From UHGV virus genome UHGV-1559644: DNA of 11,321 nucleotides. One strand, given 5' to 3'. The notes below the pieces were generated by a model. The model saw only the letters and a program-made list of their open reading frames with translations. It was not told the origin of the DNA and made no database searches. Below are positions 1 to 11,321 of this stretch, in pieces. The stretch's first letter is position 1, and each line of letters starts with the position of its first letter. Both the position numbers and the translations under genes were made by a program. This DNA is from a virus.

Positions 1-49
1 ATCTACACCTAAGCCTTCGTCGGCAGCGTCAGATGTGTATAAGAGACAG
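1..49 (+). other. Illumina Nextera P5-side adapter: flow-cell tail ATCTACAC, 8-nt i5 index CTAAGCCT, read-1 transposase adapter TCGTCGGCAGCGTCAGATGTGTATAAGAGACAG (technical, non-biological)
   Basis: Exact match to the Nextera read-1 adapter including the 19-bp Tn5 mosaic end AGATGTGTATAAGAGACAG. Genomic sequence starts at 50. Confidence 0.95.
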
Positions 50-544
50 CCCCAGAAATGCCAGATTACGTATATCCTGGCAGCGATCGCTATTTTCCAT
101 GAGTGAACGAACCTGGTCGAAATCAGTGCGTTCGAACGCTAGTGCCTGTTTTGCACGTTCACCGGCATCAACGTTTTCTTTTCGGATCCGCCGCATAACC
201 AGTGAAACAGCATTGCTGTCACTTAGTCGCGGCAGCCCGGACCGACGATGAAGCATGTTTAGCTGGCCCAAATGTTGCTGGATAGTTTTTACTGCCAGAC
301 CGCGCGCCTGAAGATATAGAAGATAATCGCGAACATCTTCAGGTTCTGCGGGAAACCATTTCCGGTTATTCAACTTGCACCATGCCGCCCATGACCGGCA
401 AACGGACAGAAGCATTTTCCAGGTATGCTCAGAAAACGCCTGGCGATCCCTGAACATGTCCATCAGGTTCTTGCGAACCTCATCACTCGTTGCATCGACC
501 GGCAATGCAGGCAAATTTTGGTGTACGGTCAGTAAATTGGACAT
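50..544 (-). CDS. cre: Cre site-specific tyrosine recombinase, N-terminal 165 codons only (3' end cut by the adapter junction)
   Basis: Translation MSNLLTVHQNLPALPVDATSDEVRKNLMDMFRDRQAFSEHTWKMLLSVCRSWAAWCKLNNRKWFPAEPEDVRDYLLYLQARGLAVKTIQQHLGQLNMLHRRSGLPR... is recognisably P1 Cre. The last 8 residues and stop of the track ORF 29..544 (LSLIHI*) are encoded by adapter, so true coding sequence ends at 50. loxP lies about 420 bp upstream, as in P1. Confidence 0.96.
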
Positions 545-5336: not shown

Positions 5337-5789
5337 TCAGATACGTGCGGATGTGGCATTACCGTAATGACGGTGCTGACGGGCCACCTTATTGAAAAGT
5401 TGACGCGCCATTACCCAAGGCTGGTGCTCCCGGCGTTCCTTTTCGTCCTGCGTCATATAGAGTTCGTTCTGGAGTTTTTCATCAAACCGGCGCGGAGCGC
5501 GGCTGCGGCGAAAGAATTCAGGATTCAGAGAGTGGATCTGAAATCTACGTGGGCGTGTACTGTCATCAATCAAAACAGACGAATACTTAGACACAGCGAT
5601 AGCCTTTAAGCGCAGATAAACATCGCGCTTATCGACATCCAGATGCGGGTATTCCTTTTCAAGAATTGCTGCGAGTTCTTTCGCTGATAGAAGAGATTTA
5701 GTGCGGATCATGTAATCCGCAATCTCGTACGATGTTATTCGTGAGTGATTTATTTCCATGAAGTGGCGTCCCTGCCAGTTAAGTAACAT
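5337..5789 (-). CDS. lpa: Lpa (gene 10), late promoter activator, 150 aa
   Basis: 150-aa ORF immediately upstream of pacA, preceded by a C1 operator-like site and SD GGTGA. Assignment is by synteny and size. Confidence 0.7.
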   Translation of the reverse strand: MLLNWQGRHFMEINHSRITSYEIADYMIRTKSLLSAKELAAILEKEYPHLDVDKRDVYLRLKAIAVSKYSSVLIDDSTRPRRFQIHSLNPEFFRRSRAPRRFDEKLQNELYMTQDEKERREHQPWVMARQLFNKVARQHRHYGNATSARI

Positions 5790-5859
5790 CCTGTCACCTA
5801 CTGATTAGCCCATGTCAACTAATCAACGTCGAATATAATACCATCGATTAAAGAAATAG

Positions 5860-5876
5860 CAATGCATTAGAGCAAT
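5860..5876 (-). promoter_or_regulatory. C1 operator-like site overlapping a candidate sigma70 promoter for lpa
   Basis: Minus-strand ATTGCTCTAATGCATTG matches the operator consensus at 14/17, lies 71-87 nt upstream of the lpa ATG, and is followed by a TATTAT/ATTATA -10 candidate. Confidence 0.5.
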
Positions 5877-5877
5877 T

Positions 5878-6921
5878 TCATCTAACGCTCGACGAATGAC
5901 TTGTGATAGCGCCGACTCCAAGCGCGTAATCAAAGAACAATCGTTGATGCATCGCCAGCCTACCGTGCGTCTTCTCCCAATTATCGCGGTCACGCTCAAT
6001 ATCACGCTGGCATGACTGGCACAGAGGAATAGCATAAATGTCATGCGCGCATAATCGACTATGACGAACGATATAAGGCGTAATGTGAGCGCCAGCTCCC
6101 GCAGCTCCACAGCCACAGCATGGACGGGAAGCCACAAAATCCATGTACTCGGGCAATTTTAGCGATTGAAGTTTTGGTATTTTGAAATGCGCCATGCTAG
6201 GGTCGGAGTCAACATCCACAGGGCATACTTTTGCACGCATCGGCGCGGCGCGTTCTTCCATCATCTGAACATATGCTGTAGCGCGATCGTCATACGGGCG
6301 AATATCCGCCTCTTTCAGAGGTCCACTATCCTGCGGAGTAGCCTTCATCTTATTTATTGATATGCGGCAGACTTCTTCCGGCATCAGGTGCATCATGTTG
6401 CGCATGAAAGCCCACCAGCACAGCTCCTGAATACTTAAATCATGGCTATTTGAAAGGCCCATTTCCTGACGGGCGACATCCAGTATCCAGTTAACGCGAT
6501 TATTGTGCAGCGTTTCTTTCAGCTCATTAAAACCACGCATCCGGTAATGGTTATCGTGATGCCAGCACAACAACACCGCGCTATTGTCTCGTTCAGCGTG
6601 GACAATATGGTTGTCACACCAACTACGATCTGCGGCCTGGCATTGACCCTCTTTCCTACGCAACCACGCAACCAGCGCGTCAATTCCACCAATACGGCGA
6701 AACAGTTCATCGCTGTTAAAAAACGGCTGCAACGCCTCATTTGTTGCCATGGTTTGCTCGGTAACAACGAGGCCGTCTTCCATGTGCTCGATTAACTCAC
6801 GCGGCACCGGCTCCATAATAAATTTACGGCCAGCCTCCACCAGCTTTCTGACCTCCTGATCCACTTTGAACGTGGCGAGGCCAAGCTCTTTCTGTACAAA
6901 GGGAGTAATTACGGCTTTCAC
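5878..6921 (-). CDS. Cys/His-rich hypothetical protein (347 aa) with two HNH-like or zinc-binding-like motif clusters; occupies the position of the P1 post-doc gene(s)
   Basis: Long ORF with motifs [24 protein letters not shown] and CCGCG...RHSRLCAHD...PLCQSCQ. Same strand and immediately downstream of phd-doc. Confidence 0.7.
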
Positions 6922-6948
6922 ATCACACCTTTAATCACTGATTGGGCT

Positions 6949-7149
6949 TTATCTGCTGCCCGGCATTCTCTGTTTAAGCACAGCCATTTCCTGACGGCAT
7001 AACACAGCAATAGCGGTCCTGGCACCAATTTGCCTACCAACCAGGTATTGCTTTACCTCGCGGCGACTCACGCCATCAAGAAGCATCTTTAACGCTTCAC
7101 GGGACAACTTGTTGTATTTACGTGCCATTAATCTACTCCGCAGAACCAT
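6949..7149 (-). CDS. small hypothetical protein (59-66 aa) with HTH-like segment, immediately downstream of doc
   Basis: ORF start at 7149 overlaps the doc 3' end; an alternative ATG at 7128 lies 4 nt after the doc stop. Sequence [22 protein letters not shown] resembles a small HTH. Coding status is uncertain. Confidence 0.4.
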
Positions 7150-7513
7150 ACAATCTACGTAACGTGTCGGCGACAGAAGATACAGATATCTCGCCAGTCG
7201 CAGCGCCTACGGTAAGGTCTGCCAGTTCAGGTGAATCAAATACCTGCACCCCGTTACGGCGTAGAAATAGCAGCGCACTGTTTAGCGCGGTACGCTTATT
7301 GGCATCATTGAATATATGCCCTCTCGCTGTAGCCACCAGGTAGGTGGCGGAGACTTCGAAAAGGTCGGTGATCTCTTCGTAGGCAACTCTGGCCTGAACT
7401 CTCCCGATAATGGCCTCTGCCCTACCCGGATCTGACATTCCCGGCAGGCCGCCGTAGCGGCTTATATTCGCATCATGAAGCGCAATAAGTTCTTCCGGTG
7501 ATATATGCCTCAT
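7133..7513 (-). CDS. doc: Doc toxin (death on curing), Fic-fold kinase, 126 aa
   Basis: Sequence [22 protein letters not shown]... with Fic motif HIFNDANKR. Start overlaps the phd stop by 1 nt. Confidence 0.96.
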
Positions 7514-7734
7514 TATCGGTTAACCAGTTCCTTGTTGGTGGAGTCCAGAGTGTCAAACAGGGATGCAAATTCAGCATCCAGCGCCGCTTTTTTGTAGGCT
7601 TCGAAAGTAGCCTTGCTGACAATTACTGCTGGCTCACGGCCTCTGCGGGTGATTTCAACCTCTTCCCCGGCTTCAACATTGTTGAGCACTTCAGAAAGGT
7701 TGCCGCGCGCGGTACGGAAGTTAATGGATTGCAT
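7513..7734 (-). CDS. phd: Phd antitoxin (prevents host death), 73 aa
   Basis: [73 protein letters not shown]. The true ATG is at 7734 (the track ORF starts at an upstream GTG at 7740). SD GAGGTG is 4 nt upstream. Confidence 0.96.
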
Positions 7735-7740
7735 AAACAC

Positions 7741-7775
7741 CTCGTGTACTCGTTATGTGTACACAATTATAAACT
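7741..7775 (-). promoter_or_regulatory. phd-doc promoter/operator: -10 TATAAT with palindromic GTGTAC(AC) Phd-binding-type sites
   Basis: Minus strand reads TATAAT TGTGTACACATAACGAGTACACGAGGTG...ATG. GTGTACAC at 7757-7764, second half-site at 7745-7752. Confidence 0.6.
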
Positions 7776-7806
7776 TCACAGGCATAAAGCACCAGCACTT
7801 TGCAGC

Positions 7807-8196
7807 TTAAATCACCGGACAATCATCAAACTCCCCACTTCGGGCATCATTGATGACATGAGTGATCACACCAAAAACAGCATTACTGCCCGTGCATCCA
7901 TCGTCATCTACTGGTAACGCCTCTTTCTTCCCGGTGCTTAAATCCTCCAGGTGCTGGCGCGGATACTTCCTGTATCTCTTTATGCGATATTCACCCTCCA
8001 TAGCGCACACAAGCAGAGAACCATCAACCGGAGTAAGCGAGGAATCAACCACCAGCAAAGCACCCTGCAATATTCCCTCACGGTGATGGCTATCAGCTGC
8101 CCGCATGAAGTAGGTTGCTGATGGATGCCTGATTAGTTGCTGATCAAGAGAAATTCGGCTTTCAACATAATCCGCCGCAGGAGAAGGGAAGCCCAT
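7807..8196 (-). CDS. humD: HumD, UmuD'-like translesion-synthesis accessory protein, 129 aa
   Basis: FPSPAADYVE...HPSATYF and C-terminal VFGVITHVI resemble UmuD. A LexA box lies 20 bp upstream; SD GAGGTGG. Position upstream of phd as in P1. Confidence 0.88.
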   Translation of the reverse strand: MGFPSPAADYVESRISLDQQLIRHPSATYFMRAADSHHREGILQGALLVVDSSLTPVDGSLLVCAMEGEYRIKRYRKYPRQHLEDLSTGKKEALPVDDDGCTGSNAVFGVITHVINDARSGEFDDCPVI

Positions 8197-8215
8197 AGCG
8201 TTTCCACCTCAATAA

Positions 8216-8235
8216 TACTGTTCATTTATACAGTA
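8216..8235. promoter_or_regulatory. LexA (SOS) box TACTGTTCATTTATACAGTA in the divergent humD / ORF 8371 intergenic region
   Basis: Perfect CTGT-N8-ACAG with AT-rich spacer, flanked by TA as in the consensus TACTGTATATATATACAGTA. Overlaps a -10-like TATAAA for humD. Confidence 0.85.
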
Positions 8236-8370
8236 TACATTAAAGAGACACCTTTGGTGCAAACGCGTTACGTACATCAACCACCGCTGATGATTTTGTG
8301 CGCTTTGCTACTATTCATCACCAACGGATCAGCGTAACCTCGTTGCCAATCAGTTAATAAGGAATTAGCT

Positions 8371-8955
8371 ATGCCTAATCGCATTCCTCTCGATCCTGTA
8401 TTGCCCAAAAATTTTGACTGCACTCCTAACGAGAAACGCTTTAAAGCTCAGCTGGACGCCTAGTGGGACCATCCATATGGGGTTACACAACCTGACGGGA
8501 AAATTGTAGTTTATTGTCTGAATGGTGGGGCGTGGGACCGTCCATCCGTGCTTTGTTTGGCAGATAACTATGATGAAGCCTGTGAACTTGCCGAAAGACA
8601 GCAGGCAAGCTGGGTAAAAACACGGTCTGAACCGACATTCATGTTTTCAAAAGAACCGCCATTTATACTGGCGAGGATGTCGCAGCGACCGGATCATCAA
8701 CAAGAAATTGTTGCTGAATTTTCCTCAAGGGATGAGATGAATCTCTTCTCATTAAAGCAGGAAGAAAGGGATCGCGTCGAAGTGTCTCCAACTCTCGACC
8801 ACAACCGGATGAACCTGGCCCAGCTCGCCTGGTACAGCAAAGAATTAGAGATGTCTATTGCCCGGCTTGAAAACGAAAAAGCCGCTATCCAAGTCCAGCA
8901 CGAAGTAGTTCTGAACCGGATTAGAGAAATGCAAAACGATAACAGGGGATTTTGA
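8371..8955 (+). pseudogene. hypothetical protein gene (193 sense codons) interrupted by one in-frame amber codon at 8461-8463; alternatively a 30-aa ORF plus a separate downstream ORF
   Basis: ATG at 8371 with SD AAGGA 8 nt upstream. The frame stays open from the TAG at 8461 to the stop at 8953. The downstream segment has no credible start/RBS (GTG 8548 and ATG 8641 lack an SD). C-terminal part is coiled-coil-like. Confidence 0.45.
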
Positions 8956-9312
8956 ATGGCTAAAATCGAGTACCATCGCGATCGCAGTAATTACCTGGAA
9001 ATATACGATCATGAATCTCTTAACGATATCAACGATGCGTTATATGAATACTGTGAAAAAACGAGCATCACAGATGCACCTGATGCATTTGTCGAGCTGC
9101 CGGTATATCTCCGCGACATCTATGCAATACGAACACCGCCCGTATCGGTGATTCACATTGGCTATGTCCGCCTGTCCATCGAAGAAGATGAAGATCGTTA
9201 TATCGTGCGCCACTATACATTGGACAGAAAAGAACTTCCTAATGAATGGAACATGAGTAATTTCTACAACGGTGAATATGGCTTAAAATCCGCTAATAAT
9301 TTACGGTCATAA
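8956..9312 (+). CDS. hypothetical protein, 118 aa, translationally coupled to the preceding ORF
   Basis: ATG at 8956 immediately follows the TGA of the upstream ORF; SD AGGGGA 8 nt upstream. No homolog recognised; AT-rich. Confidence 0.6.
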   Translation: MAKIEYHRDRSNYLEIYDHESLNDINDALYEYCEKTSITDAPDAFVELPVYLRDIYAIRTPPVSVIHIGYVRLSIEEDEDRYIVRHYTLDRKELPNEWNMSNFYNGEYGLKSANNLRS

Positions 9313-9865
9313 TCTATACAGGCATGTATAACAACAACGAGCCTATTAGCTGTCAACAACGTTATTTCCTCAAATAAGAAAAAGCAGAAAACAAATTGTT
9401 TAAGGTCACAAATTGTGGCCTTGATGGAGGAGGGAGGCTTATTGGCTATGGCTAAAAATCAAATTAGACACTTCATGTTGCTGTAGCTCATCAAGATCCG
9501 AGGCCACAAAACCTTTTCCGAAAAACTTCACAAGTAACTCACTAGCCGCATCATTGTCACCTATTACACGAAAGTCATACGGCAACGTCGCAAGTTGACG
9601 ATGTAATCCTGCTGAGAAAGTCGAATCTAACAGCGCCCAGAATTCCCACCGCAGGATAATACTCGCCTCTTAATACTGTATATATGTTGTTACGATATGT
9701 TTTTCTGTCTCTAAAAAAAGATGTTAATAGAATGCTAACCATTGAAGGGGATAAAAATATACAATTCCAACAAACGTTATTTTTAACAATTTTTTTCTTT
9801 GCGTTGACTTTCCCGGACACCTTGTCTGACCGAAGGTGCGCGAAAGCCACTTTTTCCTTCCTGAG

Positions 9866-9874
9866 TTATCCACA
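9866..9874 (+). promoter_or_regulatory. DnaA box TTATCCACA in the nrdA promoter region (second weaker box TTATGCAC at 9879-9886)
   Basis: Exact 9-mer DnaA-box consensus about 160 bp upstream of the nrdA ATG. Confidence 0.7.
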
Positions 9875-9903
9875 AAGTTATGCACTTGCAAGAGGGTCAT
9901 TTT

Positions 9904-9950
9904 CACACTATCTTGCAGTGAATCCCAAACATACCCCCTATATATAGTGT
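9904..9950 (+). promoter_or_regulatory. tandem NrdR boxes (CACACTATCTTGCAGTG and CCCTATATATAGTGT) of the nrdAB promoter
   Basis: Two imperfect 16-bp palindromes of the acaCwAtATaTwGtgt type spaced about 31 bp centre to centre, 80-120 bp upstream of nrdA. Confidence 0.7.
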
Positions 9951-10027
9951 TCTAAGCAGCTTCCCGTACTACAGGTAGTCTGCATGAAACTATTGCGGAA
10001 AGAATTCCAAAAACAGGTACGACATAC

Positions 10028-11270
10028 ATGAATCAGAATCTGCTGGTGACAAAGCGCGACGGTAGCACAGAGCGCATCAATCTCGACAAAATCCATCGCG
10101 TTCTGGATTGGGCGGCAGAAGGACTGCATAACGTTTCGATTTCCCAGGTCGAGCTGCGCTCCCACATTCAGTTTTATGACGGTATCAAGACCTCTGACAT
10201 CCACGAAACCATTATCAAGGCTGCCGCAGACCTGATCTCCCGTGATGCGCCGGATTATCAGTATCTCGCCGCGCGCCTGGCGATCTTCCACCTGCGTAAA
10301 AAAGCCTACGGCCAGTTTGAGCCGCCTGCGCTGTACGACCACGTGGTGAAAATGGTCGAGATGGGCAAATACGATAATCATCTGCTGGAAGACTACACGG
10401 AAGAAGAGTTCAAGCAGATGGACACCTTTATCGATCACGACCGTGATATGACCTTCTCTTATGCTGCCGTTAAGCAGCTGGAAGGCAAATATCTGGTACA
10501 GAACCGCGTGACCGGCGAAATCTATGAGAGCGCCCAGTTCCTTTATATTCTAGTTGCCGCGTGCTTGTTCTCGAACTACCCGCGTGAAACGCGCCTGCAA
10601 TATGTGAAGCGTTTTTACGACGCGGTTTCCACATTTAAAATTTCGCTGCCGACGCCAATCATGTCCGGCGTGCGTACCCCGACTCGTCAGTTCAGCTCCT
10701 GCGTACTGATCGAGTGCGGTGACAGCCTGGATTCCATCAACGCCACCTCCAGCGCGATTGTTAAATACGTTTCCCAGCGTGCCGGGATCGGCATCAACGC
10801 CGGGCGTATTCGTGCGCTGGGTAGCCCGATTCGCGGTGGTGAAGCGTTCCATACCGGCTGCATTCCGTTCTACAAACATTTCCAGACAGCGGTGAAATCC
10901 TGCTCTCAGGGCGGTGTGCGCGGCGGTGCGGCAACGCTGTTCTACCCGATGTGGCATCTGGAAGTGGAAAGCCTGCTGGTGTTGAAAAACAACCGTGGTG
11001 TGGAAGGCAACCGCGTGCGTCATATGGACTACGGGGTACAAATCAACAAACTGATGTATACCCGTCTGCTGAAAGGTGAAGATATCACCCTGTTCAGCCC
11101 GTCCGACGTACCGGGGCTGTACGACGCGTTCTTCGCCGATCAGGAAGAGTTTGAACGTCTGTATACCAAATATGAGAAAGACGACAGCATCCGCAAGCAG
11201 CGTGTGAAAGCCGTTGAGCTGTTCTCGCTGATGATGCAGGAACGTGCGTCTACCGGTCGTATCTATATTC
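10028..11270 (+). CDS. nrdA: ribonucleoside-diphosphate reductase 1 alpha subunit (class Ia RNR), N-terminal about 414 codons; 3' end truncated by the adapter
   Basis: Translation from the ATG at 10028 (MNQNLLVTKRDGSTERINLDKIHRVLDWAAEGLHNVSISQVELRSHIQFYDGIKTSDIHETIIKAAADLISRDAPDYQYLAARLAIFHLRKKAYGQFEPPALYDHVVKMVEMGKYDNHLLEDY...) matches E. coli-type NrdA including the ATP-cone. Absent from the ORF track because it has no stop in the window; the minus-strand track ORFs 9938..10438 and 10550..11311 are its shadows. Confidence 0.96.
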
Positions 11271-11321
11271 CTGTCTCTTATACACATCTCCGAGCCCACG
11301 AGACCGATCAATCTCGTATGC
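11271..11321 (+). other. Illumina Nextera P7-side adapter (CTGTCTCTTATACACATCTCCGAGCCCACGAGAC, then index bases and ATCTCGTATGC)
   Basis: Exact match to the Nextera read-2 transposase adapter, followed by index-like bases and the start of the P7 tail. Technical, non-biological. Confidence 0.95.

Follow-up and report, generated by a model that had tools for sequence, protein, structure and literature searches.

An amber codon at a former Dcm site interrupts lxr in naturally circulating P1-like phage-plasmids

In-frame amber codons are familiar from several settings that come close to the case described here. Classical P1 genetics relied on amber mutants. Those were conditional-lethal alleles of essential genes, used with suppressor hosts, and they share with our locus an in-frame TAG in a gene of the P1 family. 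Phages are also known for stop-codon read-through and reassignment, where an in-frame stop likewise precedes a long open frame, together with conservation of the stop, a suppressor tRNA on the element and a sign of purifying selection downstream. A further setting is provided by cytosine methylation, and most E. coli carry dcm. In lacI, spontaneous amber hotspots sit at Dcm sites (Coulondre et al. 1978, as reviewed in PMC12606429), where a GC>AT transition at the methylated internal cytosine of CCWGG creates TAG from CAG (Gln) in coding-strand CCAGG. The T:G lesion produced by deamination of 5-methylcytosine is the target of Vsr very-short-patch repair (PMC2715241).

The gene concerned here is lxr ("LexA regulated function") of P1 (P1_gp102, YP_006568.1, 190 aa), which corresponds to upf94.2 of P7 (AAQ07574.1, 194 aa). 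It proved non-essential when P1 was screened genome-wide by CRISPRi (PMC10695390). Our literature search returned mentions of phage lxr and no characterisation of it. PGAP labels lxr/upf94.2 in plasmids as 'DNA-binding protein'. As for clues to function, Lxr has no Pfam, NCBIfam or PADLOC family, PHROG 6164 carries no assigned function, and searches of PDB and BFVD with the confident Lxr model returned no significant structural neighbour.

We analysed a stretch of 11,321 nucleotides, referred to below as the window (UHGV virus genome UHGV-1559644). It is the ENA metagenome contig ERZ652144 NODE_567, with a coverage of 5.17, and it matches P1-family phage-plasmids. Its genes follow in the order truncated cre-like integrase, c1, pacB, pacA, lpa, pdcB, pdcA, doc, phd, humD, the split frame discussed here and a gene of 118 aa. 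No Rfam family was found in the whole window. Illumina Nextera adapter and index sequences occupy positions 1-49 and 11271-11321. The stretch 9850-11270 matches ypaB-nrdA of the E. coli chromosome at 100% identity, while identity to plasmids stops at 9911. The resulting overlap of 62 bp (9850-9911) is a DnaA-box stretch common to P1-like elements and the region upstream of nrdA. Because plasmid and chromosome overlap at this shared repeat, the window is almost certainly, to judge from its sequence, a chimeric assembly across it. With such a join and adapters at both ends, it is unsuitable for structural inference. The features of the lxr region are collected in Table 1.

Table 1. Features of the lxr region, with positions counted along the window
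Feature	Position	Strand	Remarks
humD (UmuD'-like S24 peptidase), divergent from lxr	7807-8196	-	intact; annotated in P1, P7 and plasmids
LexA box TACTGTTCATTTATACAGTA (CTGT-N8-ACAG), humD-lxr intergenic region	8216-8235		intact; sequence match to annotated sites
Shine-Dalgarno sequence AAGGA of lxr	8359-8363	+	anti-SD pairing -6.2 kcal/mol
lxr pseudogene (P1 lxr / P7 upf94.2 / PHROG 6164)	8371-8955	+	194 codon positions, broken at codon 31
30-aa stub MPNRIPLDPVLPKNFDCTPNEKRFKAQLDA, then TAG	8371-8463	+	sole part still translated from the native start
TTT (Phe24), from TCT (S24F)	8440-8442	+	private to the window's haplotype; Ser in most homologues
Destroyed Dcm site, now CCTAG, ancestral CCTGG (CCWGG)	8459-8463		relatives GCCTGGTGG, window GCCTAGTGG
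Amber codon, from TGG (Trp31) by transition G8462A	8461-8463	+	alignments with relatives
Remaining 163 lxr codons, untranslated from the native start	8464-8952	+	rest of the N-terminal domain and C-terminal coiled coil
135-aa ORF from GTG, PGAP 'hypothetical protein' in TAG plasmids	8548-8955	+	weak SD, without the most conserved 59 residues
Downstream gene, P7 upf93.6 homologue, PHROG 5797	8956-9312	+	ATG abuts lxr TGA; own SD AGGGGA; intact

The frame opened by ATG at 8371-8373 runs through 30 sense codons and then meets TAG as codon 31. Past this TAG the same frame continues for 163 sense codons up to TGA at 8953-8955, which makes 194 codon positions when the TAG is counted as sense. A first-pass annotation, made from the letters and a list of open reading frames, had described a 30-codon ORF with a good Shine-Dalgarno sequence that ends at the TAG, and both the sequence and the ORF list agree with it. 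The continuous frame that it reported beyond the stop stands as well; its counts of 193 codons for the whole frame and 164 codons after the TAG have to be replaced by 194 and 163, a trivial correction. A stop-free run of 163 codons has a probability of about 4e-4 in the plasmid part of the window (stop frequency 0.046, six frames), and 20,000 shuffles of 8464-8952 yielded no stop-free sequence, so the open run is not a product of chance.

As judged by homology, the split frame is lxr, and it has the form found in P7 as upf94.2. At the nucleotide level it shares 99.7% identity with the intact 194-aa gene of pJIE250_3, 99.1% with upf94.2 of P7 and 94% with lxr of P1; its C-terminus is of the P7 type, not the P1 type. 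Two positions separate the window's frame from the intact allele of pJIE250_3, and the latter matches PHROG 6164 over residues 1-194 (E 1.4e-134). The locus, the neighbours (phd-doc, humD, LexA box), the start and the Shine-Dalgarno sequence are the same as in P1 and P7. The two phage genes are intact (190 and 194 aa), whereas the window copy contains the amber in place of Trp31 and the replacements S24F and P104S. Homology and position thus both place the gene in the lxr/upf94.2 family, but the uninterrupted frame of 190-194 aa is broken by the TAG at codon 31. It follows that the window copy is a pseudogene allele rather than a functional member of the family.

The surroundings of the split frame repeat the layout of the annotated records NC_005856 and AF503408: lxr is divergent from humD, shares a LexA box with it and lies beside phd-doc. 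The LexA box of the window has its counterparts in the LexA site of P7 and in the protein_bind feature of NC_005856 named 'LexA binding site in the regulatory region of lxr and humD'. For the window itself, this consensus box suggests that lxr is a LexA/SOS-regulated gene. A simple promoter scan found no sigma-70 promoter at the box. The gene downstream of lxr has anti-SD pairing of -6.5 kcal/mol. More distant homologues of lxr have no conserved neighbourhood, neither a recurrent association with umuD or LexA nor a constant partner gene; they occur on a Klebsiella phage-plasmid, on Pseudomonas plasmids beside a resolvase and on environmental plasmids.

The first-pass annotation proposed that a sense codon at this position in orthologues would establish a nonsense mutation in a single gene, as opposed to two independent genes, and the relatives bear this out. 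Codon 31 is TGG, among the sense codons that the annotation had listed, in P1, P7 and pJIE250_3, and these relatives also have TCT where the window has TTT. Among 52 related IMG/VR loci, retrieved with the window's own translation as query, TGG is present in 49, including a homologue of 68% identity, and TAG in 3. A protein search gave about 120 cluster representatives of Lxr from Enterobacteria, Pseudomonas, Burkholderia, Xanthomonas, Bradyrhizobium and Mesorhizobium. Both Trp31 and Trp32 are invariant in alignments of 33 and 44 of these homologues (45-92% identity), where residues 1-60 form the best-conserved block. The invariant positions fall mostly within residues 1-59 (I5, P6, P9, W31, W32, D33, C49-R57). 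Most of the distant homologues have a length of about 130 aa and extend over the N-terminal two-thirds alone, which delimits a conserved domain from residue 1 to about 125. Only enterobacterial homologues of 190-199 aa have the C-terminal coiled coil (helix 149-192 in an AlphaFold model). On the evidence of these alignments, the amber removes almost all of the conserved domain of Lxr.

The TAG is by no means limited to the window. The whole haplotype, with TTT at codon 24 and TAG at codon 31, is present in the isolate E. coli KTE119 (KB732924.1), with 99.93% identity to the window across about 4,542 bp (5371-9911). It is also found in three other ENA/Logan assemblies, including human-gut metagenome contigs, and in IMG/VR locus L012. 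The exact 30-aa stub with Phe24 occurs on 17 contigs, among them that encoding the KTE119 protein ELF05041.1. TAG without S24F is far commoner than this haplotype: in a collection of 15 billion proteins, the stub with Ser24 is found on 534 contigs, and three 135-aa remnants are found on 375, 310 and 24 contigs. We further searched 5,426 complete E. coli genomes for exact matches to 83-nt probes. About 205 of them harbor the locus, and TAG is present in 24, as plain TAG in 8 and together with V38I in 16; the corresponding TGG haplotype is present in 39. Carriers of TAG come from human, poultry, pig, fish, crayfish, soil and wastewater sources on several continents, with clinical isolates included. 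Besides E. coli, of which three sequenced substrains of MRE162 (UK, France, Norway) belong here, there are carriers among Shigella and Salmonella. The TAG is a natural nonsense allele in circulation, and it is already contained, unremarked, in hundreds of public records.

A likely origin of the mutation can be read from its immediate context. All relatives with TGG have a CCWGG site at this place, and the change is G>A at its fourth base. The affected G8462 pairs with the methylated internal cytosine of CCAGG on the bottom strand. In our view, spontaneous deamination of 5-methylcytosine is the most likely source of G8462A. Deamination on the bottom strand would result in a T:G mismatch at CCTGG, and if this mismatch was missed by very-short-patch repair, it would be fixed as CCTAG, with conversion of Trp31 from TGG to TAG. 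The lacI ambers share with such an event its type (GC>AT), its place at the methylated inner C of CCWGG, the resulting TAG and the guarding of this class of site by Vsr repair. They differ in the strand and the codon: in lacI, CAG (Gln) lies in coding-strand CCAGG, while here the 5-methylcytosine is on the non-coding strand and TGG (Trp) in CCTGG becomes TAG. The basis is different as well, since we rely on population data and not on a measured mutation rate.

Two further Dcm sites are present in lxr besides that at 8459-8463. At 8814-8818, the same change at base 4 (G>A, position 8817) is synonymous and is found in P7 and in the related loci L017 and L032. At 8828-8832, the site again lies in frame as GCC-TGG, and the same change would give W154*. 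A 153-aa protein that ends just before Trp154 (P0018) occurs on 80 contigs. At the DNA level, the W154* amber gave no 100% match with an 83-mer probe in complete E. coli genomes, and its exact 23-mer was absent from JGI metagenome contigs. Across 41 unique loci of 3.5 kb, rare C>T/G>A variants occupy 6 of 16 Dcm hot positions and 173 of 1,211 other C/G positions (odds ratio 3.6). This enrichment is suggestive only, its one-sided p depending on the cut-off for rarity (0.02 for at most 3 copies, 0.05 for at most 2, 0.21 for singletons). When all polymorphisms are included, the test (p=0.21) is swamped by deep haplotype divergence.

The TAG is found on two flanking haplotypes that are about 30 differences apart, and each of them has a near-identical sister with TGG. 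Between 7749 and 9513, just 3 positions (8441, 8462 and 8986) distinguish the window's haplotype from the TGG plasmid pJIE250_3. From the other TAG loci (L004, L005, L006, L016 and L019) this haplotype is separated by about 30 differences, the nearest at 8323-8325 upstream and at 8680 downstream; the near-identical TGG sister of these loci is L015. Two or more firings of the hotspot would account for this pattern, and so would the exchange of a TAG-bearing tract of at most 354 bp (8326-8679) by recombination between the two backgrounds.

The subsequent evolution of the TAG lineages is consistent with loss of function. Changes specific to them are S24F, P104S, V38I, W55* (TGA), E131K and V60M. 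All six alter the protein, none is synonymous and all are GC>AT transitions; the count is too small for significance, and the pattern points to the relaxed constraint that is expected of a disabled gene. Truncation is also frequent outside of the TAG lineages. Counting all alleles, lxr is truncated in 14 of the 52 IMG/VR loci by 5 different lesions, the others being E72*, E112* (seven loci), E137* and a frameshift that leads to a product of 158 aa. Further frameshifted or truncated lxr stubs are present in the protein collection. The neighbours, in contrast, are never truncated in related loci (humD 0/50, phd 0/46, doc 0/46). Because truncation affects 14 of 52 copies of lxr and none of 50 copies of humD, the constraint on lxr, as seen in these loci, is much weaker than that on its neighbours. 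Judged from the same comparison, lxr is decaying in many lineages, and the TAG of the window is one instance of this decay.

Several other explanations of the TAG have to be weighed against a natural nonsense mutation. The most trivial one is a base-call or assembly error in a metagenome contig of about 5x coverage, the real gene being intact, as the first-pass annotation had also considered. The low coverage and the poor hygiene of the assembly, with its untrimmed adapters and chimeric join, speak for such an error. It would, however, have to be repeated identically in the isolate KTE119, in the three other ENA/Logan assemblies, in L012 and on all 17 contigs with the exact ORF, and the TAG alone would have to be wrong in 24 complete E. 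coli genomes as well. The same haplotype in an isolate genome and in independent metagenome assemblies leaves this explanation with a negligible probability. We regard as equally negligible the idea, raised by the same annotation, that the amber marks a laboratory P1 stock with an engineered or selected am allele. The central place of amber mutants in classical P1 genetics lends it some appeal, and no result of our analysis supports it. Laboratory P1 records (NC_005856, AF234172, AF234173, M95666) have TGG and are only 94-96.6% identical to the window in this region, whereas wild plasmids of the P7/pJIE250_3 type reach 99.1-99.7%. The carriers of TAG are the diverse natural isolates described above. 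Moreover, a screen for conditional-lethal ambers would not have yielded a non-essential gene such as lxr; instead of an essential gene in a suppressor host, we find a dispensable gene on a wild P7-like backbone, and the allele is widespread.

Two explanations accept the TAG as real and retain a function for the sequence behind it. One is that full-length Lxr is made by amber suppression or programmed read-through, through a host suppressor of the supE/supF kind or a tRNA encoded by the element, the TAG being then regulatory or conditional. The frame of 163 codons past the TAG and the commonness of the TAG allele fit with this idea, which the first-pass annotation had listed among its options. 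Of the features that accompany read-through and reassignment in phages, a conserved stop and a suppressor tRNA on the element are nevertheless absent, and the small set of changes in TAG lineages gives no sign of purifying selection downstream. Among homologues the TAG is a derived minority state, seen in only 3 of 52 IMG/VR loci, and it is carried in a wide range of unrelated hosts among E. coli, Shigella and Salmonella. ARAGORN found no tRNA gene in the window and none on the complete TAG plasmid pMRE162 UK. In the commonest TAG lineage there is a second stop of a different kind at codon 55, and as this is TGA, an amber suppressor could not rescue that lineage; all lineage-specific changes, as noted, alter the protein. 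The base after the TAG is T, and such a context favors efficient termination in E. coli. We therefore consider read-through very improbable. Somewhat less remote, and still improbable, is a functional split, in which a C-terminal fragment (135 aa from GTG 8548, or a coiled-coil piece from ATG 8737) is produced by re-initiation and possibly acts together with the stub. RefSeq annotates an ORF of 135 or 132 aa in TAG plasmids, the frame is free of indels in four TAG haplotypes, TAG locus L019 has GTG>ATG exactly at codon 60, and ATG 8737 has a moderate Shine-Dalgarno pairing of -5.1 kcal/mol. In the window's haplotype, the downstream 163 codons contain neither an indel nor a further stop, and a fragment of lxr may, on this reading of the sequence, have kept some residual function. 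The starts available for the 135-aa fragment are poor, though, as the first-pass annotation had rightly observed of the downstream part in general: GTG 8548 lies 85 nt past the stop with a pairing of -3.9 kcal/mol, and the in-frame candidate TTG 8557 has no anti-SD pairing (+0.6 kcal/mol), compared to -5.9 kcal/mol at the 5th percentile of arbitrary window positions. The fragment would also lack residues 1-59, the home of most invariant positions. Because of its weak Shine-Dalgarno sequence and this missing part, the 135-aa ORF is most likely an annotation artefact. Intact homologues (L061 and L063) have Met60 as well, so V60M is an ordinary polymorphism and not a sign of a newly acquired start. 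The lesions E72*, E112*, E137* and the frameshift to 158 aa interrupt the putative fragment itself, which means that no part of Lxr is consistently spared, and the ratio of 0 synonymous to 6 protein-altering changes in TAG lineages speaks against the split too.

We conclude that the window very probably carries a natural loss-of-function allele of lxr, an ordinary young pseudogene of a dispensable gene, and that the allele probably originated by deamination at a Dcm site. Ribosomes starting at ATG 8371 would release a stub of 30 residues, and the other 163 codons would not be made; we infer that the TAG allele gives no functional product. After de-repression of the SOS response, mRNA would still be formed, and the start of lxr would yield the 30-aa peptide alone. 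About 490 nt of untranslated mRNA would then precede the gene at 8956-9312. Expression of this gene may be reduced by Rho-dependent polarity or by lost translational coupling, although it has a strong Shine-Dalgarno sequence of its own. Since lxr is dispensable, the TAG allele would be able to persist and spread.

A bolder proposal is that inactivation of lxr recurs and is favored in wild P1-like phage-plasmids, since the SOS-induced product of the gene burdens the lysogen or plasmid carrier; the two in-frame GCC-TGG Dcm sites would then serve as built-in mutational switches through which loss becomes frequent. We find this rather unlikely at present. Drift in a dispensable gene that contains hotspot Trp codons explains the recurrent loss of lxr equally well as selection does.

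Taken together, the case has little weight for biology at large, being a nonsense pseudogene of a dispensable accessory gene. It does offer what is probably a clean natural example of the textbook amber hotspot at a Dcm site, in wild plasmids rather than in lacI. In databases, the RefSeq 'hypothetical protein' of 135 aa (WP_001354543.1 and relatives) would be better labelled 'lxr pseudogene'. The weak constraint on lxr, relative to the co-regulated humD, is worth knowing before any functional work is started. If the product of lxr is indeed costly, then its inactivation represents recurrent adaptive gene loss on a phage-plasmid, and it would provide a handle on the function of a domain family that extends across plasmids of Enterobacteria, Pseudomonas, Burkholderia, Xanthomonas and rhizobia.

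Inactivation of lxr is not confined to the amber at codon 31. The gene (approximately positions 1408-1992 of each locus) is truncated in 14 of the 52 related IMG/VR loci (L012-L063), and the truncations represent five distinct lesions: W31*, E72*, E112*, E137* and a frameshift that leaves a product of 158 aa. Among the same loci, humD, phd and doc are never truncated, and the downstream upf93.6 gene is missing from 19.

Lineages that carry the TAG have acquired further changes. The commonest of them, present in L006 (NZ_AP025206.2, 1151-1735) as well as in 16 complete E. coli genomes, also bears V38I, E131K and a second nonsense codon, W55* (TGG>TGA), every one of which is a G>A transition. 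Another TAG-bearing locus, L019 (IMG/VR UViG_2778261693_000004), has V60M through GTG>ATG at the equivalent of window position 8548, exactly the codon from which PGAP begins the 135-aa remnant. Because Met60 is also found in the intact homologues L061 and L063, this is probably a coincidence. As for the two additional Dcm sites of lxr (see table), the first is polymorphic for the same G>A change at base 4, which is synonymous there and occurs in P7, L017 and L032, and the second is another in-frame GCC-TGG, encoding Trp154. P0018, a protein of 153 aa present on 80 contigs, ends, at the level of its protein sequence, just ahead of this residue.

The TAG is also carried by plasmid pMRE162 UK of E. 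coli MRE162 (NZ_CP119405.1; L084, L085), a degraded P1 derivative with numerous copies of IS1. Between its pdcB homologue and c1 there is no annotated terminase (pacAB), no tRNA genes are present on the plasmid, and its cargo includes bcs cellulose genes, an autotransporter and dcuC.

Features located in the window
Feature	Position	Strand	Remark
171-aa ORF	29-544	-	weak phage-integrase N-terminal SAM-like match
Additional Dcm site in lxr	8814-8818
Additional Dcm site in lxr	8828-8832
ypaB and 5' part of nrdA (ATP-cone, RNR domains)	9850-11270		E. coli chromosome identity

The structure of the contig itself deserves attention. At the right-hand side, identity to the E. coli chromosome is 100% throughout the ypaB-nrdA segment and P1-like identity ends at position 9911, so that 62 bp (9850-9911) are common to both sides. 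They form a DnaA-box stretch for which the P1 annotation marks similarity to E. coli DNA. Most likely, the junction is an assembly chimera across a repeat rather than an insertion of cargo. The outermost nucleotides (1-49 and 11271-11321) match no P1-like record and no E. coli chromosome among the best hits. They read ...ATCTACAC-CTAAGCCT-TCGTCGGCAGCGTCAGATGTGTATAAGAGACAG at the 5' end and CTGTCTCTTATACACATCTCCGAGCCCACGAGAC-index-ATCTCGTATGC at the 3' end, and are Illumina Nextera adapter left untrimmed at both ends. The position of the ORF at the left end is consistent with the cre-like "site-specific integrase" annotated beside c1 in related plasmids.

Upstream of lxr, humD and the humD-lxr intergenic region (7831-8325) exist as two sharply distinct haplotypes among otherwise near-identical P7-type plasmids, differing by about 25 SNPs and two indels. 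At the LexA box, three of the differences fall in its spacer or flank, and the CTGT/ACAG cores are retained. Both L015 and P7 are mosaics of the two haplotypes, which shows that recombination across this region is frequent.

The N-terminal part of Lxr (about 125 residues) is an uncharacterised domain without a Pfam family, and a confident AlphaFold model has no structural neighbours in PDB or BFVD. In Klebsiella, Salmonella, Pseudomonas, Burkholderia, Xanthomonas, Bradyrhizobium and Mesorhizobium, plasmids and phage-plasmids carry the domain, with its invariant motif WWD...CLNGG.WDR, as stand-alone proteins of about 130 aa (homologues P0086-P0162; loci L075-L083).
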